Source of the DNA: a bacterium
Lineage (GTDB): Bacteria > Patescibacteriota > Minisyncoccia > Sungbacterales > GWA2-42-14
Direction of reading: 5' to 3'
Assembly: GCA_030649305.1 (NCBI GenBank)
Contig: JAUSFV010000006.1
Location: 32 to 64,031 of the forward strand
Length of the DNA stretch: 64,000 nt
The position numbers were made by a program, and so were the translations under genes. The notes beneath the pieces were generated by a model. It made no database searches, was not told the DNA's origin, and worked only from the letters and a program-made list of their open reading frames with translations. How positions within the stretch are numbered: position 1 is the first letter of the stretch; the number at the start of each line of letters is the position of its first letter. Shown one piece after another: positions 4,997-36,066 of this stretch.

Positions 4997-5181
4997 GCCG
5001 AATCTCCCTCTATATATAGTATCAAAGGAACAAGCGTATTCAGAATAGCAAACCGAATATTTTTGTCAACAAAAAAGGCGCGAAAAGTCCCACAACAACA
5101 TTCCAACATTCTGCCTAAAGCCCGTTGGCTCGGCCAAGTAGGGCAGAATGTTGGAATGTTTAAAAAATGAAAAAAGGCGCA

Positions 5182-5505
5182 CTAGGTACGCCCCTTACCA
5201 AAAAAGAGATCACGATCATACACAAGGAGATCGGCCATAAGCTTGCGCAACCTTCTTGCGGCAACCTCTTTCTTGCTTCCCGTCGTAGAAATAGAAACTC
5301 CCCGCTTTTTATCATTCATACCCGTAACACAAACCACATCCGCCACATATCCCTTGTCTTCCGCGCTATAAAAGACCTGATAACTAAAAGCTTTGCATCT
5401 CCGTACGCGAACGCCACGACGCAACTCGCGAAGCAATTTTACCATGCGTTTTTTCTCCTTTTCAACGATTGTGCGAAACAGCAAGTTGCTGGCCGCAGTT
5501 TCCAC
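5182..5505 (-). CDS. Double-stranded-RNA-binding-domain-like protein
   Basis: …YVADVVCVTG…GSKKEVAARRLRKLMADLL fits the dsRBD C-terminal consensus G.G.SKKEAK.AA..AL. Confidence 0.4.
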   Translation of the reverse strand: METAASNLLFRTIVEKEKKRMVKLLRELRRGVRVRRCKAFSYQVFYSAEDKGYVADVVCVTGMNDKKRGVSISTTGSKKEVAARRLRKLMADLLVYDRDLFFGKGRT

Positions 5506-5656
5506 AGAATTTATTTTCTCGCCAATTTTCTTTCTGACAAGAAACGCACACGATGAATCTGTTGGTTGAGTGAATCCATTTTTCTATCCGCGGCAAAAGA
5601 AGCCACAGAACATACATAGCGATTGCTATAAGAACGCACGCGAGAAGAATATCCAT
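5462..5656 (-). CDS. Small membrane-anchored zinc-ribbon protein, 64 aa
   Basis: N-terminal TM helix followed by CVSC…CGNC; overlaps the upstream ORF by 44 nt. Confidence 0.3.
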   Translation of the reverse strand: MDILLACVLIAIAMYVLWLLLPRIEKWIHSTNRFIVCVSCQKENWRENKFCGNCGQQLAVSHNR

Positions 5657-5767: not shown

Positions 5768-5803
5768 CCTTATCGGCTAATTCGTGCGAATTAGCCGATA
5801 AGG
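5768..5803. repeat. 36-bp perfect palindrome CCTTATCGGCTAATTCG-TG-CGAATTAGCCGATAAGG (copy 1 of 3)
   Basis: Arms are exact reverse complements; lies 4 nt downstream of the M50 protease stop. Identical copies sit near 13564 and 23688. Confidence 0.8.
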
Positions 5804-5807
5804 AAAA

Positions 5808-6470
5808 TTAGAAAAAAGAAACGCCGGAAAAAATTCTGAACAACAACGATACAACCGGAAACAGCCATTGCGAGAAAAAGAAAATAAAAATCAAAAGGAG
5901 GAAAAAACCGTATTGCTGAAGAAATGTTTCAATGTTGCGCCACTGATACGGAAGCAGGGCGAATAACACTTTTGACCCGTCCAGCGGAGGAATCGGAACA
6001 AAATTAAACACCGCAAGCACGAGATTCACCAGAACAATCAAACCGAAAATTTCCGCGAGATTTTGTGTCACAAGCGAGCCGCCACCGAACACCAGCAATA
6101 CGCGAATGCCGATACCAAACACCAATGCAATGAGGATGTTGGACAACGGCCCCGCCATACCCACGAGCGCCGGCCCCCAATCATTTCGCGAACCAAACCG
6201 CGAAAAGGGATTCTTCAAATTATACGGATTATACGGCACGGGCTTTGCCCATCCGATTAAAAAGGGAGAATGCGCCAAAACGAGCAAAAGCGGCAAAATA
6301 ACCGACCCGAACGGGTCCAAATGTTTCAGAGGGTTCAGCGTCAGGCGCCCCAAATGCTTTGCCGTAGGGTCGCCAAGAAGAAGGGCAACAAACCCATGCG
6401 AAACCTCATGAATCACAACAGAAAAAATAAGAATGGCGATTTGAAAAATAGTAGGGATTGCAGAATCCAT
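5808..6470 (-). CDS. Site-2 protease-family zinc metalloprotease (peptidase M50)
   Basis: HEVSHGFVALLLGD (HExxH in a TM helix) plus LNPLKHLDPFGS; polytopic membrane protein. Confidence 0.75.
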   Translation of the reverse strand: MDSAIPTIFQIAILIFSVVIHEVSHGFVALLLGDPTAKHLGRLTLNPLKHLDPFGSVILPLLLVLAHSPFLIGWAKPVPYNPYNLKNPFSRFGSRNDWGPALVGMAGPLSNILIALVFGIGIRVLLVFGGGSLVTQNLAEIFGLIVLVNLVLAVFNFVPIPPLDGSKVLFALLPYQWRNIETFLQQYGFFLLLIFIFFFSQWLFPVVSLLFRIFSGVSFF

Positions 6471-7385: not shown

Positions 7386-8888
7386 ATGAAAATTCTTGCC
7401 AAACAATTCGGGGCCGCTCCGAAAGCCGAAGCGATTGCTTTGGCGCTTTTTGAAAAAGAGGATATCGCAAAAAATCCTCTTTTCCGTCTGCTCCCAAACA
7501 ACGTGCAGGCGCTCGTAAAAAAGTTTATTTCAGGCGGAGGATTTTCGGGAAAAGAAAGCGAAACAAAAGTTCTACCAATTTTTGAAACCTCCCTCAAAAA
7601 AATAATTCTGCTTGGACGTGGAGATAAGCAAAAATGGCATCGGAGAAAAGCGCTCCTTATTCCCCGCCGCGTAATACAAACAGCAAAACAAGAGCGCGTC
7701 AAAACAATTGCAACGCACTTGGATATGCTGGGCGATAATTCAGAAGCGCACTCGTCCGCGCGCGACATCACGACAAATATGCTCATGGCGTATTTTGAAT
7801 ATCGCCGAAAAGTAATGCCGAAAGACGGGTGGCCAGAAGTTAAGGAGGTAACCCTGCTTTGCGAAAAAAAAGATGCAAAGGCCGCAACCGAAGGCATTCG
7901 CGAGGGCAACATCATTGGTGAGGAAACAAACGAAACGCGGATACTTTCAAATACCCCCGGAGGCGAGATGACGCCCGCAACCCTTGCAGATGCCGCACGG
8001 AGAGCAGGAAAAAAACACGGGGTTCGTGTTACCATTTTTGACGAGAAAAAAATGAAAGCACTCGGGTTTGGCGGAGTACTTGGCGTTGGAAAGGGTTCAG
8101 ACATTCCTCCATGCTTTATCGTTATGGAGTACCGGCACGGTGGAAAACAAAAACCGCTGGTGCTCGTCGGCAAAGGCGTTACGTTTGATACCGGAGGATT
8201 AAACCTCAAACCAAGCGAGGGAATTTATGAAATGCATCTTGATATGTCGGGGGGTGCGGCGGTAATTCATGCCGTTTCCGCAATCGCGCGCCTGAAACTC
8301 CCGTTGAATGTCGTGGGGCTCGTGCCCGCGGTTGAAAATATGCCGTCGGGTTCAAGTTATCATCCGGGTGATTTACTCAAAACGTATTCGGGTAAAACGA
8401 TTGAAGTGCTGAATACAGATGCCGAGGGCCGGGTTATTTTGGCGGATGCTTTAGCGTATGCCAAAAAATTCAATCCCTTGCTCGTTGTAGATATTGCGAC
8501 ACTCACGGGTGCCGCCATGGGCGCACTTGGCCAGCGCGTATCGGCGCTCTTTACACAAAATCAGAAATTGGAAAAAATATTTCGCGAACTTGGAACACAG
8601 AGCGGAGACGAAATGTGGCCGCTTCCCTTGTGGGACGAATACGACGCTGATATTCAGGCGACATTTGGCGATATCGCGAATATCGCGAAAACAAAATATG
8701 GCGGGGCAATTACGGCCGCATCATTCTTAAAACAATTCGTGGACGGGTACCCGTGGGTGCATTTGGATATCGCGCCGACCATGACCACGATTGAAAGCCA
8801 GCACTTGGCAAAGGGGGCATCAGGTGTTGGTGTGCGATTTTTCGTAGAGCTTGCGAAGCATATCGTGAAAAATGGGATCTCTGTATAA
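7386..8888 (+). CDS. pepA: Leucyl/cytosol aminopeptidase (peptidase M17)
   Basis: NTDAEGRVILADALAYA M17 signature; 500 aa. Confidence 0.85.
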   Translation: MKILAKQFGAAPKAEAIALALFEKEDIAKNPLFRLLPNNVQALVKKFISGGGFSGKESETKVLPIFETSLKKIILLGRGDKQKWHRRKALLIPRRVIQTAKQERVKTIATHLDMLGDNSEAHSSARDITTNMLMAYFEYRRKVMPKDGWPEVKEVTLLCEKKDAKAATEGIREGNIIGEETNETRILSNTPGGEMTPATLADAARRAGKKHGVRVTIFDEKKMKALGFGGVLGVGKGSDIPPCFIVMEYRHGGKQKPLVLVGKGVTFDTGGLNLKPSEGIYEMHLDMSGGAAVIHAVSAIARLKLPLNVVGLVPAVENMPSGSSYHPGDLLKTYSGKTIEVLNTDAEGRVILADALAYAKKFNPLLVVDIATLTGAAMGALGQRVSALFTQNQKLEKIFRELGTQSGDEMWPLPLWDEYDADIQATFGDIANIAKTKYGGAITAASFLKQFVDGYPWVHLDIAPTMTTIESQHLAKGASGVGVRFFVELAKHIVKNGISV

Positions 8889-9342: not shown

Positions 9343-10296
9343 ATGGAAGACATAATTTTTCAAATATACGGAACTTTTGTTCTGACTCTAGCAAGTTTTG
9401 TTTTACCAATTATTGCTATCGCTTTATCGGCCTTCCCCGATGGAGTTAAAACGTTAAAGCAAACCTACGCGAATGAACAAAAACAAGCAGAAAAAAATCT
9501 TAGTGATGAATTAGAAAAAAAAGAAAAATCCGAAAAAAATCTTGATTATGACCTCTTGGAAAAAAATATCCGGACTTTAAAATTAACCAAAAAGAAGACC
9601 GAGAAACGCTTATCATATTTAAATCCCAATTATATTTTATCAAAAAGCGTAATAGCGATTGGAATTTCTATTATATCTTTTTTACTTGGACTACTATTTT
9701 ATAACCTGTCTTCTTATATCATCCCGTCGTTTCTTTTTTTGCTCAGTATTGGAACTATGGTCTGGATGATTATAATTTTTTCTAACTCAATTAAAATCGT
9801 TATTGAAGCCTCGTCCGCAGTTCAAGAAATACGCAAAACCACGGAAGAAACAATAATAGAGCTCCTCGCCACCCTTGTTGATAATAGCAAAAGCAAAGAT
9901 CGGTCACTCTTTATAGAACACAAACATATTTCAACATCTTTCAACAATGAAGAGGTTAAGGAAGGAAAAGAGTATTCGTTCTCAATAAATAAAAAATATA
10001 AAATAAAAATTTCTTTGACGAATTCTAGCGAATATATGCTAAAAACGGCTGAACTCGGTTTTACTTTTCCAGCAGAATTTTTAGTTGAAGGAACAACAAT
10101 ATCTAGAACCTATACTGGCGATAAAGAAAAAATAATCAGATTTGAACACGACCACCTTCAATCTAAAGAAAGGATGCAAGAAGGTGCAATAGATATGACC
10201 TTTCTAAAAATGGGGGTATTCGATATAGAGACATTTGTTAAAGGAGAAAATCTAAAAAGAAAAACTATTAAATTTAAAATTAAAGTTATCGAATAG
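9343..10296 (+). CDS. AT-rich Lys/Glu-rich membrane protein of unknown function (probable horizontally acquired gene)
   Basis: 317-aa ORF with 3-4 TM helices and visibly lower GC than its surroundings, directly adjacent to the tRNA-Pro locus. Confidence 0.55.
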   Translation: MEDIIFQIYGTFVLTLASFVLPIIAIALSAFPDGVKTLKQTYANEQKQAEKNLSDELEKKEKSEKNLDYDLLEKNIRTLKLTKKKTEKRLSYLNPNYILSKSVIAIGISIISFLLGLLFYNLSSYIIPSFLFLLSIGTMVWMIIIFSNSIKIVIEASSAVQEIRKTTEETIIELLATLVDNSKSKDRSLFIEHKHISTSFNNEEVKEGKEYSFSINKKYKIKISLTNSSEYMLKTAELGFTFPAEFLVEGTTISRTYTGDKEKIIRFEHDHLQSKERMQEGAIDMTFLKMGVFDIETFVKGENLKRKTIKFKIKVIE

Positions 10297-12319: not shown

Positions 12320-13492
12320 ATGAACGCACTCGTGTTCGGCGCAGGCAATATCGGTCGCGGATTTCTTGGTTCGCTTTTAGCGAAAGCGGGGTTTTCCGTG
12401 ACGTTCGTTGACATTGATGAAGCAAAGGTTTCCCACATCAATCATATTCAAGAATACCCGGTTTACATTGTCTCTGACACTGGCATACAGGAAGAAATCG
12501 TACGAGGAATTCGCGCAATTTCCTACTCCGATACGAGCACACTCACAAACGCGGTGGTGGAAGCCGACATCATCATGACGGCAGTCGGCAAAGAGCCTCT
12601 GGCCCGCGTTGCCGCAGGCCTTATGCACGGGCTTGTGCAAAGAATTGAGCAACGCCCCCACGCAGAAATACATATCGTAGTTATCGCCTGCGAAAATATC
12701 CAAGACAACACTGCGTATCTCCAAGCGCTTCTCTCTGCGCAAACCCCGAAACGATACCGCGAACGCATCAAAGATCTCATCAGTTTCCCGAACTGTGTGG
12801 TGGACAGAATCGTCCCGAATACGCTTCCGAAACACGCGCGAGCGCATCCGCTTGCGGTTTCGGTTGAAGAATATTTCCAGCTGGCGATTGACGGGACCGC
12901 GCTGAAAGCCCCTATTCCGAAAATACCGGGGATGGAAATTTCGTCTAACCTGAACGCAACGCTTGAACAAAAACTTTTTACTCTCAACATGGCGCACGCC
13001 ATCGTCGGCTACTACGGATACTTCAAGGGCTATCACTATATCCACGAAGCGATACATGATAAAGAAATCCACGAACTTCTCTGCGGCGCCCTTCAAGAAG
13101 TTGCCGCAATCATCACCGCACGACACCGCCATATTTCTTCCGCTGCCCAACAGCAATACGAAGAAAAGATCATGCAACGCTTCAAAAATCCCCACCTACA
13201 AGACGAAATTATTCGCGTGGCACGACAGCCAAAACGAAAACTCGGTCCGCATGACCGCTTGATACGCCCGGCGCTCCTCACCTGGGAACAAGGACGAATA
13301 CCTGCGTTTCTCGCAAGCGGCATTACCGCAGCATTGCGCTACGACTACGCGAACGATCATCAAGCGCAAGAGCTCGTATCAGAAATCAGAGAACAGGGCA
13401 TTGAACGGGTTCTCGAAACAGTTTCCGGCTTAGCACCGGACAATGAACTTGCGCGGCTCATCAAGGCAGACTTTCTCTTCCAATCTCTTTAA
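12320..13492 (+). CDS. mtlD: Mannitol-1-phosphate 5-dehydrogenase
   Basis: MNALVFGAGNIGRGF N-terminus of the MtlD family; AGGAGG RBS 9 nt upstream of ATG 12320. Confidence 0.8.
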   Translation: MNALVFGAGNIGRGFLGSLLAKAGFSVTFVDIDEAKVSHINHIQEYPVYIVSDTGIQEEIVRGIRAISYSDTSTLTNAVVEADIIMTAVGKEPLARVAAGLMHGLVQRIEQRPHAEIHIVVIACENIQDNTAYLQALLSAQTPKRYRERIKDLISFPNCVVDRIVPNTLPKHARAHPLAVSVEEYFQLAIDGTALKAPIPKIPGMEISSNLNATLEQKLFTLNMAHAIVGYYGYFKGYHYIHEAIHDKEIHELLCGALQEVAAIITARHRHISSAAQQQYEEKIMQRFKNPHLQDEIIRVARQPKRKLGPHDRLIRPALLTWEQGRIPAFLASGITAALRYDYANDHQAQELVSEIREQGIERVLETVSGLAPDNELARLIKADFLFQSL

Positions 13493-13498
13493 AAAATA

Positions 13499-13527
13499 CG
13501 GCACTCGTAACGAGTGCTGTTTTTTTA
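13499..13527 (+). terminator. Rho-independent terminator of mtlD
   Basis: GCACTCG-TAA-CGAGTGC followed by T7. Confidence 0.7.
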
Positions 13528-13563: not shown

Positions 13564-13597
13564 CTTATCGGCTAATTCGTGCGAATTAGCCGATAAG
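13564..13597. repeat. 34-bp perfect palindrome CTTATCGGCTAATTCGTGCGAATTAGCCGATAAG (copy 2)
   Basis: Identical to the copy at 5768; located just after the mtlD terminator. Confidence 0.8.
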
Positions 13598-13651: not shown

Positions 13652-13954
13652 ATGGCATGGGAAATACGTGATAAAAAACTGGGCATCTGGTTAAAACCGG
13701 AAGAAGCAATTGAGGCCCTCGAGAAACGACGAGCCGAAGGCGGTCTTACCTTTGACGAAGAAGGCCAGCTCAAAAGCCTTAAAAAGACGCTGGAAGAACG
13801 GGCAAAACAAGATATAAAAATCGCGGAACAACGAAAACGAAATGAACAAAGAATACGAATAGCCGAATCCCCCGAAGCAGTGGCCTGGAAGAAAAAGGCT
13901 GATGCGCTTCGGGAAGACGAAAAAAGAAAACACCCAGGAGGACACTATCTTTAG
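13652..13954 (+). CDS. Hypothetical charged or coiled-coil protein, 100 aa
   Basis: Track ORF followed by a hairpin and T-run terminator (13955-13995). Confidence 0.4.
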   Translation: MAWEIRDKKLGIWLKPEEAIEALEKRRAEGGLTFDEEGQLKSLKKTLEERAKQDIKIAEQRKRNEQRIRIAESPEAVAWKKKADALREDEKRKHPGGHYL

Positions 13955-16080: not shown

Positions 16081-16122
16081 AAAATCTATTCCTAAATTCT
16101 TAAGAATTTAGGAATAGATTTT
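16081..16122. promoter_or_regulatory. 42-bp perfect palindrome AAAATCTATTCCTAAATTC-TTAAG-AATTTAGGAATAGATTTT upstream of the pilin-like gene
   Basis: Exact inverted repeat centred on CTTAAG, ~115 nt upstream of ATG 16239. Confidence 0.6.
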
Positions 16123-22774: not shown

Positions 22775-23614
22775 GTGAAAATCAAAAAACAGAATCTGAC
22801 ATTTGATCATATCGCTACGGTCAACGGCGCGAACGACGGATCGCTTGAGAGAACGGTGAGCCTTTTTAAGCTCCTCGGCTTTACCTCAAATATGTATGAT
22901 CGCGCAAAGGGTGTCGGAGAAGACCGTCCCGACGGAACTAAGATGCGTACCATCGTAGTCGCGCGGGACCATGTAAAAATTGCGCTCATGGAAGGGATGG
23001 ACGGGCGGAGTACGGACGGCAAACCCATTGCCTCGCAAATCACCGAATACTTTAGGCGGTTTGGTGTATGCGTCCAGCATATCGCCATTCGCTGTAATGA
23101 CCTTCAGGCGCTCGTGCAAGAATTACATAAGCGCGGCATTCGCTTCATCACGCAATACGAAAACGGAAAGCCGCAAATTCTCGTAAGCGAAGACGAGGAA
23201 GAAGGAACAGTTCTGCAATGTTTCACGTTTCCGGTTGAAGGAACATTCTTTTTTGAACTCAAACAGGTTATCAAAAAAAGAGGCGCAAAAAATATCCAAG
23301 AATTCAGGGATGCGAACGTGAAAGGACTCTGGTCAAGCATCAAGGAAGCCATTGACCAGGGCTGGCTTTTCAACGTCAATATCCGCGGTGAAAAAATAAA
23401 ATCAACCCGCGCCTACTCTCATCCCGAACTTGCGGCGTATATCAAAAAATTAGTTGCGGGAAATCCTTTGTGGGAGAGCGAGGTTGAATATATAACGCGC
23501 GTGGCTGTAGAGAAAACGAAACATGAGATGCTTAATGCGGGAACACTTATCAAGAAAGAAAATCGTCTTGAACTTCCCCTGCCACCCGTGAAAAACAAAA
23601 TCAAAGGCGGGTAA
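22775..23614 (+). CDS. Vicinal-oxygen-chelate dioxygenase resembling 4-hydroxyphenylpyruvate dioxygenase
   Basis: Two VOC-like halves (…FDHIATV…; …VQHIAIRCNDL…), divergent from hmgA. AGGAGG RBS. Confidence 0.5.
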   Translation: MKIKKQNLTFDHIATVNGANDGSLERTVSLFKLLGFTSNMYDRAKGVGEDRPDGTKMRTIVVARDHVKIALMEGMDGRSTDGKPIASQITEYFRRFGVCVQHIAIRCNDLQALVQELHKRGIRFITQYENGKPQILVSEDEEEGTVLQCFTFPVEGTFFFELKQVIKKRGAKNIQEFRDANVKGLWSSIKEAIDQGWLFNVNIRGEKIKSTRAYSHPELAAYIKKLVAGNPLWESEVEYITRVAVEKTKHEMLNAGTLIKKENRLELPLPPVKNKIKGG

Positions 23615-23654: not shown

Positions 23655-23680
23655 AGGTCGCAGACATGCGACTTTTTTTC
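23655..23680 (+). terminator. Intrinsic terminator after ORF 22775..23614
   Basis: GUCGCA-GACA-UGCGAC followed by U7. Confidence 0.7.
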
Positions 23681-23687
23681 TTTTTCC

Positions 23688-23722
23688 CCTTATCGGCTAA
23701 TTCGTGCGAATTAGCCGATAAG
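23688..23722. repeat. Perfect palindrome CCTTATCGGCTAATTCGTGCGAATTAGCCGATAAG (copy 3)
   Basis: Identical to the copies at 5768 and 13564; again just 3' of a terminator. Confidence 0.8.
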
Positions 23723-24067
23723 AAAATATGCCCACACTAATTTAATTTTATATAAAACCCCCAGCGAGACAAAATAAAAACGCTGCGGGATTCCGCGGCA
23801 TTTTTATCCGCCCCGCGATTGGACAGGTTCAAAAGTTTTAGCATGAAATCACGTGGGTTGCCGCAATTTCAGCCCAAGGGCCGAAACAATGTAGGCATCC
23901 CGAAAAAGTGAGATTGTCCTAAAACCTTGACCCGCAATCAACGGAGCTTATCTTCATTATACACGAAACACAAACCATAAAACAAGACCGCTTCTGAAAA
24001 TGTTGATTATATTTTACAAATATGGTATTCTAAAATCAGAGCACTTTGTCAAAAAATGAGCAAAAAT

Positions 24068-25471
24068 ATGTGCGGATTTCTCGGCATCGCATCGCAAGAA
24101 ACCGATGTTGCGGAAGACCTCTACCTGAGCCTTTGGTCACTCCTGCATCGCGGCAAAGAAAGTTCGGGTATCGTCACCTATGACGGCGCATCCTACCATC
24201 CCGAAAAAGGCATGGGTACGGTTGAGGTAGTATTCGGAGGCGATACGCTCTCGCGTCTCAAAGGACGAATCGGCATAGGACATGTCCGCTACTCCACGAC
24301 CGGAGAAAGCTCTCTCAAAAACGCCCAGCCCATTGAGGGGTCATTCAAAAGCACGCCGTTCTGGATTGCCCATAACGGCAATCTGACAAACACGGAAACA
24401 CTCCGAAAAGAATGCGAAGAACGCGGATACTTTTTTAAAACATCAACCGACACGGAGGTTATCGCGGCTCTCATATATTTCTCCGGCGCGCCAAATTTTG
24501 AAGACGCCCTGAAACGCGCCCTGCGAAAAATTGAAGGCACCTATGCGCTGACCATTCTCTCCAAAGACACGCTGTACGCTGTTCAGGACGAAACGGGCAA
24601 TCGGCCTTTGAGTATGGGGCAAGGAAGGGGTCTTACGGTGTTTGCGTCGGAGAGTGCGGCCTTCGATGTGCTTGGCATCAAATACGTACGAGATATTAAA
24701 GTGGGCGAGATAATCGCGGTATCGCTCGAAAGTCCCCTCCTCCCCTCGGAAATTCCGTTCCGCAATCGTAAAGACGCCCCCGAACGCCCGTGTATTTTTG
24801 AATACGTATATTTTCTGCGCCCGGACAGCAAGTGGTACGAACGACGCGCCCAAGTTGTCCGAGAACATATGGGACGAATTCTATGGAAAGAATGTCCGAT
24901 TGAAGCCGATGTGATAGTGCCGGTTCCTGACTCCAGCAACTTCATGGGCGCGGGACTTTCAAAAGAATCAGGTATCCCGCTTGAGATGGCTTTATTTCGT
25001 TCGCACTATGTGGGACGAACATTCATTGAGCCCGTGCAAGCGCGGCGAACCAAAGAAATGAGAATCAAGCTGAATATAATACCCGAACTTGTTCAAGGGA
25101 AAAAAGTTGTCGTAGGAGATGATTCAATTGTGCGTGGCACCTCAATTAAACGAGCCATTTCGCTTGTTCGGGAGGGGGGTGCCAAAGAAGTCCACGTGCG
25201 CATAAGCTCTCCTCAATATATCTCACCATGCTACTACGGCATTGATACCTATCGCGTCAAAAACGAACTTATCGCGAAAAACCACGCGGGCAACATTGAA
25301 GAAATTCGAAAAGAAATCGGCGCGGATTCGCTCTATTATCTAAGCTTAGAGGGGATGAAGCGCGCCGTGACTGACGCGCGCGATGACGAACACCGCGCCC
25401 TTCAATTCTGCGACGCCTGTTTTACCGGAAATTACCACATCCCCATTCCACAAGAAATCATCACATCATAG
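24068..25471 (+). CDS. purF: Amidophosphoribosyltransferase
   Basis: MCGFLGI N-terminal nucleophile Cys, a class-II GATase domain, and a C-terminal PRTase domain (…VVVGDDSIVRGTS…). Confidence 0.9.
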   Translation: MCGFLGIASQETDVAEDLYLSLWSLLHRGKESSGIVTYDGASYHPEKGMGTVEVVFGGDTLSRLKGRIGIGHVRYSTTGESSLKNAQPIEGSFKSTPFWIAHNGNLTNTETLRKECEERGYFFKTSTDTEVIAALIYFSGAPNFEDALKRALRKIEGTYALTILSKDTLYAVQDETGNRPLSMGQGRGLTVFASESAAFDVLGIKYVRDIKVGEIIAVSLESPLLPSEIPFRNRKDAPERPCIFEYVYFLRPDSKWYERRAQVVREHMGRILWKECPIEADVIVPVPDSSNFMGAGLSKESGIPLEMALFRSHYVGRTFIEPVQARRTKEMRIKLNIIPELVQGKKVVVGDDSIVRGTSIKRAISLVREGGAKEVHVRISSPQYISPCYYGIDTYRVKNELIAKNHAGNIEEIRKEIGADSLYYLSLEGMKRAVTDARDDEHRALQFCDACFTGNYHIPIPQEIITS

Positions 25472-25561
25472 CAAACCAAAAACGGCTCCTCGCGAGCCGT
25501 TTTTTATTTTTCTATTTTTGCTATTCCCCTCCCATCTTCACCTTTAAACTTCTTCCAAGTA

Positions 25562-25593
25562 CTATTTTCTTATTCGCGCGAATTAGAAATAAG
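25562..25593. promoter_or_regulatory. Near-palindromic site CTATTTTCTTATTCGCGCGAATTAGAAATAAG overlapping the 3' end of the arsR-like gene
   Basis: Core ATTCGCGCGAAT; direct and inverted repeat of the site at 25900-25931. Confidence 0.6.
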
Positions 25594-25848
25594 AAAAATT
25601 AAGACACGAACCGCCGCAGGGAGTGAATCCGCGAGGCGATAAAAAACAGTAAGGCTGACTTGATTTCGCTCAACGATATCTAACTGCCGAAGCAAATTAA
25701 GATGTTTTGAGGTGGCAGTAAAAGATAAACGAATTGCGTCAGCAATTTCCCCGACGCTCAAAGGCCGTTTTTTCTGCAAAAGAAGTTTAATAATCGCGAG
25801 CCGGCGCTTATTCGCAAGCCCTTTTAATATTTTTTCAAGATTTTTCAT
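25570..25848 (-). CDS. ArsR/SmtB-family winged-helix transcriptional regulator
   Basis: …RLAIIKLLLQKKRPLSVGEIADAIRLSFTATSKHLNLLRQLDIVE… HTH typical of ArsR. Confidence 0.65.
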   Translation of the reverse strand: MKNLEKILKGLANKRRLAIIKLLLQKKRPLSVGEIADAIRLSFTATSKHLNLLRQLDIVERNQVSLTVFYRLADSLPAAVRVLIFLISNSRE

Positions 25849-25899
25849 ATTTTCTTTTCCATCTCTCTTCCTATCTTCTCATCTATCCCCTCTTCTCAC

Positions 25900-25931
25900 C
25901 TATTTTCTAATTCGCGCGAATAAGAAAATAG
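25900..25931. promoter_or_regulatory. 32-bp near-perfect palindrome CTATTTTCTAATTCGCGCGAATAAGAAAATAG upstream of the arsR-like gene
   Basis: Arms are reverse complements with one mismatch. Preceded by a CT-rich tract; putative operator. Confidence 0.6.
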
Positions 25932-25972
25932 GTGAACCCACGATAAGAAAAATAGAAAAAAATATTCAGGTG

Positions 25973-26578
25973 TTATTCTAGCAAACCATCCAAATTCACA
26001 TCATATAAAATATGGTCCTGCACGAGGTGATAATTGACGAGCTCGCCCTTCTTGAACCAATGCTCGATTTCTTTTTCCGCCTCCCCCACCGAACCTGATG
26101 CGTGAATCAAGTTTCTGATACTTCGCGTATCCCCGTCAGACACCTCATACGAATCTAAAACAAAATCGCCGCGAATGGTGCCGACGTCCGACGTCAACGG
26201 CTCGGTTCCTCCCACAAGCTTTCGCACGATTTTCACCGCGTGCGCCCCCTGCCACACCATCACAATCACGGGGCTTGCAGTCATATATTTTTTCAGGCGT
26301 TCCAAAATTGACGCTGTAATTTCAAGCGGGTCTTCGGACGGCGGGGTTTTCCCTTTTTCTTTGTAACTTCGAATGGTTTTCTCGCCCGTCACCCTCCGCC
26401 ACTCGGAGTCAAGAGTGTAATGTGCCTCAACAAATGCCTCATCCGGCAAAACCATTTTCATCGCGACCAATTTCAAACCGATGCGCTCAAAACGCCCGAT
26501 AATTTCGCCGACCAAAGAGCGCTGAAGCGCGTCCGGCTTAATAATAACAAGCGTTTGTTCTTTTTTGGGATGTTGCAT
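25973..26578 (-). CDS. ndk: Nucleoside diphosphate kinase (with an insertion)
   Basis: LVIIKPDALQRSLVGEIIGRFE… …GTIRGDF… …NLIHASGS…: NDK motifs. Confidence 0.8.
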   Translation of the reverse strand: MQHPKKEQTLVIIKPDALQRSLVGEIIGRFERIGLKLVAMKMVLPDEAFVEAHYTLDSEWRRVTGEKTIRSYKEKGKTPPSEDPLEITASILERLKKYMTASPVIVMVWQGAHAVKIVRKLVGGTEPLTSDVGTIRGDFVLDSYEVSDGDTRSIRNLIHASGSVGEAEKEIEHWFKKGELVNYHLVQDHILYDVNLDGLLE

Positions 26579-28733: not shown

Positions 28734-30317
28734 TTAATTTTTCTGAATTATTCTGTATTTTTTAAAAACCCAATACCCTATTATGCCATACAACGGCAGA
28801 AGCAAAATGCCGTAGGAAAGCGAAAACGAAACGGACGCAAGCGGGATATTCGCGAAAAATTTTATAGCCGAGAGTTCGTACTGAAGCAATGCCCAGCTAA
28901 CCCACGAAAAAACAAATGCGAGGGGTGAGAAAATAAAACCCGAAACGGCGGTTAAAAATCCGAACAACATAGTTGCGGGAATCATAATCAATACAGCAAG
29001 GTTGCTCAAGGGGCTTATGATAGAAATGCGCCCGAAATTATAGACCAACAAAGGTAAAACCAAAACTTGTGCTGAAATCGTTGCGGTAAAAATTTCGCGT
29101 ACAAACGATTTTTTCTGCTTTCGCAAAAATCCCCGCTCATCGCGCGGCACGCGAAAAAAATCATACGCACGATACTTCATCCGCTCCATATACCCGTCAA
29201 TAATCGGGGAAACATAAATCAAGCCGAGAGTCGCCAAAAACGACAACTGAAATGCGACATCAAAGCGCAAAATCTTCGGATTTTGAAAAATCATAACGGC
29301 TCCGGCAAACACCAGCGCGTTTCGCACATGATACAGCCGCCCTTCTTTTCGCGCAACGAGCACCAAAATACCCATAATTGCCGCCCGCACGATTGATGCC
29401 GACGCCCCCGTCAAAATGGTAAACGCAACAATCCCGAAGGTTGCGAGCACAAACGACCATGAAAATGGGAGTGAGAACCACGCGAGGAATTTCAAAAACG
29501 AATCCGCGACAATGGAAATGTTGTAACCCGAAAGTGCAATGATATGGGTTGTTCCCGTTTCCGCAAACTGGTCTAATAATTCCTGCGGCATGCTTTTTCG
29601 CTCGCCCAAAATTAAGCCCGCCATGAATGACGCGTGGGGTTCGGGTAAAAATCTGCCGAGATTTTCGGAAAATTTTGATTTAAGCAGAAATAATTTCTGA
29701 TATATTGGGTTCGCCCCGCCCTCGCCGACTTTTTCAACTTCGGGAAAACGCACGAGATAAAAAATATCGTCTTTTGCCAAATACGCGCGATAATCAAATT
29801 CGTCCGTAAAATTTTCCGGCTCTTCAATCGTTCCCGAAATTTTTAAAATATCGCCGTACTGAAATTCAGGGTACGGACGCATGATAAGAAGAATTTTTGC
29901 ATCATTATCCGACGCAACCACGACCTGCTGGCTTTTTGGTTTTCGTATTGGTTCATCAATAATCGACGCTTCAAACGAGATAGATTTACTAACAATATCG
30001 GGGGGCAAAATATGGGACACCGATGAAACCTGCGCGAAACGAAACATGCCCGCGACAAATACAAGCACCATCAACGAATAACAAATAGGTTTCAAAAAAA
30101 TAAATTCGCTTATTCGCACTGATTCGTTTTTCGCTGATGTAACGCCATATATGACCCCAACGCACCCCAATACAAAAAAAGCCCATATAACGATGGGGGC
30201 AAAAGTAACAAAGGAGGCAAACACAACGCCCACGACAAACGCGACGCATAACCAGAAAAAAATTTTTGATTTAGACGGCATGCGCTTATTTGTAACGGAA
30301 AAATTCTCATGAGTCAA
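28734..30317 (-). CDS. comEC: Competence protein ComEC/Rec2 (membrane channel domains; lacks the MBL domain)
   Basis: DUF4131-like N-terminus plus a Competence domain (…THIIALSGYNISIV…) and many TM helices. Confidence 0.75.
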   Translation of the reverse strand: MTHENFSVTNKRMPSKSKIFFWLCVAFVVGVVFASFVTFAPIVIWAFFVLGCVGVIYGVTSAKNESVRISEFIFLKPICYSLMVLVFVAGMFRFAQVSSVSHILPPDIVSKSISFEASIIDEPIRKPKSQQVVVASDNDAKILLIMRPYPEFQYGDILKISGTIEEPENFTDEFDYRAYLAKDDIFYLVRFPEVEKVGEGGANPIYQKLFLLKSKFSENLGRFLPEPHASFMAGLILGERKSMPQELLDQFAETGTTHIIALSGYNISIVADSFLKFLAWFSLPFSWSFVLATFGIVAFTILTGASASIVRAAIMGILVLVARKEGRLYHVRNALVFAGAVMIFQNPKILRFDVAFQLSFLATLGLIYVSPIIDGYMERMKYRAYDFFRVPRDERGFLRKQKKSFVREIFTATISAQVLVLPLLVYNFGRISIISPLSNLAVLIMIPATMLFGFLTAVSGFIFSPLAFVFSWVSWALLQYELSAIKFFANIPLASVSFSLSYGILLLPLYGIIGYWVFKKYRIIQKN

Positions 30318-30415
30318 ATTTGCCCTCCGTCATTCCTTATTCCAATATACCAGTATACTGGTATATTGGAATGTAACCCAAAAAGAAAAAACGGCCGAAG
30401 CCGTTCATGGATAAA

Positions 30416-36022: not shown

Positions 36023-36066
36023 AAAAATGTAGCTATATTTGCGATAGCAAATATAGCTACATTTTT
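36023..36066. terminator. 44-bp perfect hairpin (20-bp stem AAAAAUGUAGCUAUAUUUGC, loop GAUA) with A/U runs built in; bidirectional terminator-like
   Basis: Exact inverted repeat seen in the sequence. Confidence 0.55.

Follow-up and report, generated by a model that had tools for sequence, protein, structure and literature searches.

The locus described here lies in a stretch of 64,000 nucleotides (the window) from contig JAUSFV010000006.1 of assembly GCA_030649305.1, a bacterium of the Patescibacteriota, and consists of an arsR-like regulator gene with a near-palindrome at each of its ends (Table 1). The gene ndk lies upstream of arsR on the same strand, and purF lies downstream and is convergent. 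Both near-palindromes around the arsR-like gene, reported in an earlier reading made from the sequence only (the sequence-only reading), are present, CTATTTTCTTATTCGCGCGAATTAGAAATAAG at 25562-25593 and CTATTTTCTAATTCGCGCGAATAAGAAAATAG at 25900-25931. The upstream copy widens to a 40-bp palindrome (25896-25935) with 22-nt arms that are 95% complementary, and its centre is located 67 nt before the arsR ATG and 41 nt past the ndk stop. The downstream copy encodes the last seven residues of the protein, LISNSRE, together with the TAA stop; read in the orientation of the gene it is not symmetric, its left arm CTTATTTCT being coding and degenerate and its right arm AGAAAATAG intact. The exact 12-mer ATTCGCGCGAAT occurs at two places only in the window, both flanking arsR. 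With up to one mismatch allowed, seven matches were found where 0.72 were expected, a number reached in none of 100 shuffles, and the 18-mer CTWATTCGNGCGAATWAG is present at five places, namely the two arsR sites and three further palindromes, termed type A.

Table 1. Coordinates of the arsR locus and of the palindromes discussed in the text (window positions)
Feature	Position	Strand	Remarks
Upstream operator (predicted)	25899..25932		Full palindrome CCTATTTTCT(A/T)ATTCGCGCGAAT(A/T)AGAAAATAGG
Leader between operator and ATG	25849..25898	-	Purine-rich on the coding strand; the CT-rich tract of the sequence-only reading
arsR-like gene	25570..25848	-	92 amino acids; Pfam HTH_5
Downstream operator (predicted)	25562..25593	-	Spans last 7 codons and TAA stop; asymmetric, right (downstream) arm intact
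Bidirectional intrinsic terminator	25478..25504		Shared by purF and arsR, which converge; ~55 nt past the downstream operator
Type A perfect palindrome CCTTATCGGCTAATTCGTGCGAATTAGCCGATAAGG	5768..5803		Follows an M50 peptidase gene (5808-6470, minus strand), 5 nt past its stop
Type A palindrome	13564..13597		After the terminator of a mannitol-dehydrogenase-like gene; 55 nt before open reading frame 13652-13954
Type A palindrome	23689..23722		Directly after the terminator of gene 22775-23614; 334 nt before purF
42-bp perfect palindrome	16081..16122		Halves AAAATCTATTCCTAAATTCTT and AAGAATTTAGGAATAGATTTT; between prs and a pilin-like gene; core ATTCTTAAGAAT

The 92-amino-acid (aa) protein matched the Pfam families HTH_5 (ArsR; E=4.9e-10) and HTH_20 (3.7e-8), in agreement with the family assignment of the sequence-only reading. 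A profile search of the PDB with the protein and its relatives returned HlyU as the best match (2.9e-14), along with Lmo1102, NolR, PagR, CzrA, SmtB and CadC. The AlphaFold2 monomer model, with a predicted local distance difference test score (pLDDT) of 87.5, has the ArsR fold, with helices at residues 2-11, 14-26, 32-39, 43-55 and 78-89 and strands at 59-64 and 67-72; confidence collapses at the C-terminal end, where residues 91-92 have a pLDDT of 44. The elements follow the order of the ArsR/SmtB winged helix-turn-helix (alpha1-alpha2-alpha3-alphaR-beta1-beta2-alpha5), and similarity to the family is found in the sequence as well. The recognition helix (residues 43-55) starts F43-T44-A45-T46-S47-K48-H49. 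No cysteine is present in the 92 residues and the sole histidine, H49, is in the recognition helix, so that the ligands of an alpha3N or alpha5 metal-sensing site are missing. Judged by its sequence, the protein is a genuine ArsR/SmtB member that lacks a canonical metal site. There are 378 homologues in the protein database, the named ones being from Parcubacteria/Patescibacteria. The protein is a small predicted regulator (86-92 aa) devoid of metal-binding residues and conserved over Parcubacteria/Paceibacteria.

Comparing the operator-gene pairing among genomes had been suggested in the sequence-only reading, which took absence of the palindromes from orthologous loci as evidence against its proposal. 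When one genome per species was scanned, 450 relatives were obtained, from which 80 loci were kept; these loci, from 80 GTDB species, and the window make up the 81 loci searched for the core ATTCGNNCGAAT. The palindromes are clearly there and the pairing is kept: the core was found 20-208 nt upstream of the arsR start (median 49) in 75 of the 81 loci; in 72 it lies on the stop codon or follows it by no more than 43 nt, and 68 have it on both sides of the gene. Only 50 other matches occurred in 1.2 Mb, about one per 24 kb, and most loci scored as missing a site have one that differs by a single base or is interrupted by an insert. Both sites are unchanged in relatives with a 79%-identical protein, which also keep the synteny of ndk and arsR, with intergenic flanks that have diverged and changed in length. 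Since the genes flanking arsR vary between species, the module itself is the kept unit.

The overlap of the downstream site with the stop codon was observed in two frames. At 30 loci the centre of the site lies at -8 from the stop, the reading frame running through the left arm to a TAA or TAG in the right arm, and the protein ends in SNSRE; at 23 loci the centre lies at +5, the TAA of CTAATTCG is the stop and the proteins have 85-86 aa. Through this overlap, the tail SNSRE with which many homologues end is the predicted operator read as codons, which explains a recurrent oddity of annotation and fits the low model confidence of the tail. In two genomes an insert of ~31 nt, similar in both, interrupts the operator precisely at the dyad, in L009 at the upstream site (~9885-9950) and in L014 at the downstream site (~8440-8500). 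The insert, CCTCCTTCG-N9-CGGCGGGCA-GCG, has opposite orientations in the two loci and could be a tiny insertion element targeting the centre of the palindrome or a spaced variant of the operator.

Information on the pairing of protein and site came from co-variation. Of the proteins, 48 have K, 26 have T and 5 have R at residue 44, the second of the recognition helix (X in LSFXATSKH), and this residue tracks the half-site base at position 11 from the dyad, where the outer repeat TATTC has its C. Half-sites that go with K have C in 171 of 182 cases and G in the remaining 11; with T, base 11 is T in 86 of 94 (C in 6, A in 2), and with R it is G in 9 and C in 7. Both arsR-flanking sites of the window carry the T signature CTATTTTCT, the upstream one in both arms, matching Thr44. 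Close pairs of loci differ in both residue and base: L055 (T, base T) has a protein 66-70% identical to those of L065, L060 and L046 (K, base C), and L002 and L017 (K, base C) are close to T-type proteins, at 69-72% identity. When a neighbour-joining tree was made without the column of residue 44, parsimony placed six residue changes and six site changes on it, and four of the residue changes each share a branch with a site change, out of 156 branches. T46, S47 and H49 are invariant, as is ATTCG, and the five proteins with K48R go with non-CG dyads only (7 of 7, compared with 36 of 143). Since a residue of the recognition helix co-varies with base 11, the encoded protein very probably binds the motif, and the specificity code predicted from these data is that Lys44 reads TATTC and Thr44 reads TATTT. 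In NolR, the recognition helix's N-terminal end makes base-specific contacts (PMC8960804), and in RexT, which binds ATTCG-N15-CGAAT, a lysine at the helix's N-terminal end has been proposed to read a guanine (PMC8960804).

At orthologous loci the upstream sites are mostly full palindromes, with positions 11-15 complementary in 62-90%. TATAAT-like hexamers, often TG-extended, follow these sites and start 18-19, 27-30, 36 or 48-49 nt from the centre, with 75 matches on the forward strand versus 39 on the reverse. The centre of the site thus lies at about -30, -40 or -50 from the transcription start, and the site overlaps the -35/spacer region in the commonest classes. In many of the loci TATAAT lies 6-7 nt before the ATG, and the mRNA would be leaderless; examples of arsR with a leaderless-type, TG-extended TATAAT are L038, L073, L041, L030 and L061. 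Because it is a full palindrome that adjoins a -10 box in orthologues, the upstream site has the position of a repressor operator and is assigned as the putative autoregulatory operator of arsR. This position makes it most likely that the protein shuts off its own transcription.

Taken together, these observations make it probable that both near-palindromes are binding sites of the ArsR/SmtB protein encoded between them, the upstream one autoregulatory and the downstream one a member of a 3'-proximal class. The full site would be composed of four ATTC/GAAT elements, TATT(C/T)-TCT-WATTCG-NN-CGAATW-AGA-(G/A)AATA. Its dyad symmetry fits a dimer, which ArsR/SmtB proteins form through alpha1/alpha5, and from the layout we infer two dimers per full site. 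Over or beside its own promoter, the full palindrome would allow the protein to shut off arsR transcription. The site at the stop codon would be a second, asymmetric one that keeps the outer repeat on the downstream side only, and it may be one of a class that, as extrapolated from local densities, numbers perhaps a few tens per genome. Asymmetric sites of this predicted class are concentrated around arsR, and as a rule they come shortly after the 3' end of a gene with the same orientation.

The consensus of the downstream and dispersed sites is TCTCTAATTCGCGCGAATAGG(A/C)GAATAG, in which the right outer repeat is kept and the left is degenerate. Among sites without coding overlap, the right repeat is perfect in 43 of 50 and the left in 12 of 50. 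Degeneracy of the left arm as a by-product of coding overlap was rejected, as the asymmetry persists where the upstream gene is more than 40 nt away. A metagenome scan with a directional 20-mer yielded 120 loci, and 17 of about 110 directional sites adjoin an arsR gene. At the remaining sites, with open reading frames (ORFs) of at least 100 aa considered, the left gene is co-oriented in 53 of 57 cases and the right gene in 39 of 49, for a baseline of ~73%; when ORFs were called from 60 aa, 11 sites fell in convergent and 2 in divergent regions. Many dispersed sites lie right at the stop codon of the upstream gene, at -8, +5 or +14/15. Within 1 kb of arsR there are 1.3-1.5 sites per 10 kb, and at a distance of 7-10 kb there are 0.08, a fall of about 15-fold. 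A conserved protein of ~575 aa (35-55% identity), which has no Pfam match, is preceded by the directional motif at L083, L115, L130, L147, L151 and L196, and at all six of these loci the upstream stop lies 14-15 nt before the motif centre. Genes for M50-family peptidases lie directly upstream of 2 of 57 dispersed metagenome sites, and an M50 gene also precedes a type A palindrome in the window.

The distribution of the 3' sites is best fitted, at low confidence, by bound protein that serves as a barrier or insulator where transcription units end. A stronger form of this idea, which we regard as doubtful, is that the complexes are mainly orientation-dependent blocks to RNA polymerase or the replication fork at gene ends, as in Bacillus subtilis RTP-Ter or mitochondrial mTERF, and that autoregulation only holds the level of the protein. 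RTP is a small winged-helix dimer that binds asymmetric bipartite sites of ~30 bp in a polar orientation, and its gene adjoins such sites, through which it is autoregulated. The system described here likewise has a small winged-helix protein and asymmetric, oriented sites of ~30 bp beside its gene, and the sites cluster around arsR as Ter sites do around rtp. The intrinsic asymmetry, the co-orientation of the upstream neighbour, the excess of convergent over divergent regions, the lack of promoter association and the mixed functions of neighbouring genes (see below) also speak for polar blocks. The strand that carries the motif is G-rich at 43 of 47 loci, as is the strand of arsR at 60 of 67, compared with 73% for genes in general, but this bias could not be separated from gene orientation, as GC skew and orientation are confounded in short loci and discordant cases are too few to part transcription from replication. 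GC skew stays negative over the whole window and does not switch, and no signal of a replication terminus was found. In addition, canonical terminators already precede two of the window's three type A sites, the protein family is ArsR and not RTP, and there may be a few tens of sites genome-wide versus ~9 near the terminus for Ter. Extended to the whole lineage, the argument would give a genome 'punctuation' system in Parcubacteria/Paceibacteria, in which a minimal ArsR-fold protein, held at a steady level by the full operator at its promoter, acts on perhaps a few tens of directional three-repeat sites after genes as an orientation-dependent barrier to RNA polymerase or the fork, rather than as a regulon switch. 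We hold this to be improbable; if it were true, further layers would come from paralogous pairs (the type A and ATTCT-NN-AGAAT classes).

Several observations weigh against reading the two sites as targets of one ArsR protein with operator and 3'-proximal roles. The gene calls in related loci come from a crude longest-ORF caller. The inner ATTC repeat does not change with residue 44, and residues 44 and 48 cannot both touch bases 10 bp apart, given one helix in one register. A sigma-70 promoter scan of 25300-26100 gave no sites, and no recognisable -10 lies between the upstream site and the ATG; the overlap of operator and promoter is therefore shown for orthologues rather than for the window. 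The window lacks ~22 nt that carry TGTAGAAT in the close relatives L202 and L203. At the downstream and dispersed sites, neither an enrichment of -10 hexamers nor a fixed offset was found at any offset, and the motif was rejected as a promoter on this ground. Nor was a consistent relation of these sites to intrinsic terminators found: only ~12% of sites have a terminator within 150 nt to either side, a terminator follows 8% of arsR downstream sites versus 17% of gene ends, and the motif as a substitute for, or partner of, a terminator showed no pattern. Finally, the genes adjoining dispersed sites have no common function, which is odd for a classical regulon. Among the genes that come after arsR and those on both sides of dispersed sites, FolD, PolA, MgsA, GNAT, Fic, DnaJ, M50, RF-1 and toxins appear only one to three times each, so that a functionally coherent regulon was rejected, and a regulon of DNA repair or nucleotide metabolism was dropped as the neighbours are heterogeneous. 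DNA looping through helical phasing of the distance between upstream and downstream sites gave a weak signal that was not convincing (R 0.2-0.29). The suggestion in the sequence-only reading that the near-palindromes are operators of the ArsR protein is strongly supported by the conserved pairing, the co-variation at residue 44 and, for the upstream site, the -10 box in orthologues. It is not borne out for the downstream site as a promoter operator, which has no -10 association and in the window faces a convergent gene and a terminator.

The sites are self-complementary and often lie directly after stop codons, as would elements that act in the mRNA, as hairpins serving for termination, stabilization or processing, with the ArsR gene merely one carrier of them. 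Such a role is also in line with long perfect palindromes whose outer arms differ, with one compensatory change among them in L026. Against it, primary sequence is kept and not pairing, position 7 being complementary in only 12-42% of sites, and the outer left arm is degenerate. A-rich rather than T-rich sequence follows the sites, and the terminator scan called neither arsR site as a GC-rich hairpin with a U-tract; the canonical terminators lie apart, at 25478-25504, 13492-13526 and ~23657-23688. The type A copies that come after such terminators would be beyond the likely end of the transcript. Rfam matched nothing, no tRNA or known RNA family was found near the sites, and the co-variation with a DNA-recognition helix has no explanation at the RNA level. 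We therefore consider RNA-level elements very unlikely.

Even less credible to us is a mobile or recombination unit, be it an element bounded by inverted repeats, such as a miniature inverted-repeat transposable element (MITE) or a REP/RAYT-like element, or a cassette array with attC- or dif-like sites. RAYT genes are flanked by dispersed extragenic palindromes that prefer the 3' ends of genes and avoid divergent promoter regions, and the arsR gene shares with them a flanking dispersed palindrome with the same preference and avoidance. Arrays of small ORFs, each followed by a site (L108, L118, L087 and L030), and some neighbours that are typical accessory genes (GNAT, Fic, NUDIX and toxin genes) also favour mobility. 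However, the sole ORF between the sites is the ArsR protein, a winged-helix protein of 86-92 aa with neither a catalytic nor a transposase-like domain, and no Y1 transposase is present. Copy number is low, and the motif is kept over all sampled species instead of being species-specific; the arrangement recurs over 80 species, and the 79%-identical relatives described above keep both sites and their synteny. The flanks of the five copies (the two arsR sites and the three type A palindromes) do not align beyond the palindrome, for which reason an extended repeat or MITE was rejected, and the window holds the gene only once. The consensus contains no R''/R' boxes of attC (RYYYAAC ... GTTRRRY), and no recombinase was found among the commonest families adjoining arsR, Phage_integrase included, in a neighbourhood that was not searched exhaustively. 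Scans of viral contigs found nothing, and a phage origin was rejected. Many directly repeated recombination sites would presumably destabilise a 1-Mb genome. The small unit bounded by inverted repeats, which the sequence-only reading had offered as its second option, is not supported. Within L108, the segment 1990-5830 holds ~10 motif copies in 4 kb, with arsR and small unannotated ORFs (59-143 aa) between them; three motif copies in this locus are 71-80 bp apart with no ORF between.

The three type A copies are identical perfect palindromes of 34-36 bp that share with the arsR sites the core CTAATTCGNGCGAATTAG and, in all, the inner 18 bp. They have CGG at positions 12-10, with G at position 11, and the sites of the Thr44 protein itself have TTT. 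At other loci, R-type proteins are paired with G at this position. The idea in the sequence-only reading that these 34-bp palindromes are further sites of the same regulon is thus unproven, as only the inner core is shared and G, not T, stands at the specificity position. No second ArsR paralogue that could be a candidate type A binder was found in the window. Other T-type genomes (L004 and L014) also have long perfect palindromes with non-T outer arms, and one metagenome-assembled genome encodes two paralogues of different type (L024 and L062). The palindrome at 16081-16122 has the layout ATTC-N4-ATTC-N4-GAAT-N4-GAAT, as in the ArsR operator, and palindromes of its core class lie near arsR in about ten other loci (L047, with 4 copies, L059, L071, L109, L146 and others); it is probably a related operator class for a paralogue. 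The simplest reading is that the operator classes form a small superfamily served by paralogous proteins. At 5097-5160, directly upstream of ORF 5167-5556, an inverted repeat was observed, AACATTCCAACATTCTGCC / GGCAGAATGTTGGAATGTT, whose arms are 26 nt apart and resemble the palindrome upstream of arsR in L047.

Among known systems, operators of the SmtB/CzrA 12-2-12 type are imperfect inverted repeats with a 2-bp centre that overlap the regulator's own promoter; they are autoregulated, and more than one dimer binds per site. The arsR locus shares with them the inverted repeat with a 2-bp centre at the promoter of the regulator, but it has no metal site, no adjacent gene for efflux or sequestration, and sites at both gene ends. 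The sites also contain half-site words identical to those of RexT, an ArsR/SmtB protein of Nostoc (ATTCG/CGAAT), but the spacing here is N2 with extra outer repeats instead of N15. RexT senses H2O2 through cysteines, which the protein described here lacks. The two are only distantly related in sequence (PDB 7txm, E 0.006, an entry named only 'Transcriptional regulator' in the search output, which we take to be RexT). The best profile matches, HlyU, NolR and Lmo1102 (PDB 3jth, 4omy/4on0 and 9t6t; E 2.9e-14 to 1e-9), have the same alpha1-alpha2-alpha3-alphaR-beta-beta-alpha5 fold, no metal ligands, and inverted-repeat operators read by the alpha4 helix (PMC8960804). Compared with them, the protein here is shorter (86-92 aa) and its predicted operator is a 32-bp, four-repeat one; a second site lies on its own stop codon, and the dispersed sites have a direction and lie close to the 3' ends of genes instead of preceding a defined set of genes.

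The kind to which the predicted system belongs, that of an ArsR-family protein autoregulated through an inverted-repeat operator, is known. What is new is that the gene is bracketed, that the overlap with the stop codon is kept in either of two frames, and that the dispersed sites are directional and 3'-proximal; in the literature searched we found no paper with the core 12-mer or with such a regulator described in Parcubacteria/Patescibacteria. How bacteria of the candidate phyla radiation regulate their genes is almost unknown, and they cannot be grown alone. The present data offer a concrete, widely conserved candidate pair of regulator and operator with a specificity code, which can be tested with synthetic DNA and recombinant protein and does not require cultivation. 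A bracketed gene with directional 3'-proximal sites is unlike the normal deployment of an ArsR repressor and hints at a barrier or insulator in very compact genomes.

Some further features of the window were observed. The 330-nt gap upstream of purF (23722-24055) holds a -10-like TATATAAAA and, at ~23781-23806, a terminator-like hairpin, GCTGCGGGATTCCGCGGC, followed by ATTTTTA; it matched no Rfam family at gathering score and may be a leader/attenuator or a small RNA. Two more long perfect palindromes are unrelated to the ArsR motif in sequence. One, made up of ATTCCAATATACCAGTA and TACTGGTATATTGGAAT (30339-30372), lies 22 bp upstream of the start of a 527-aa ORF (28734-30317), and the other is AAAAATGTAGCTATATTTGC-N4-GCAAATATAGCTACATTTTT at 36023-36066.

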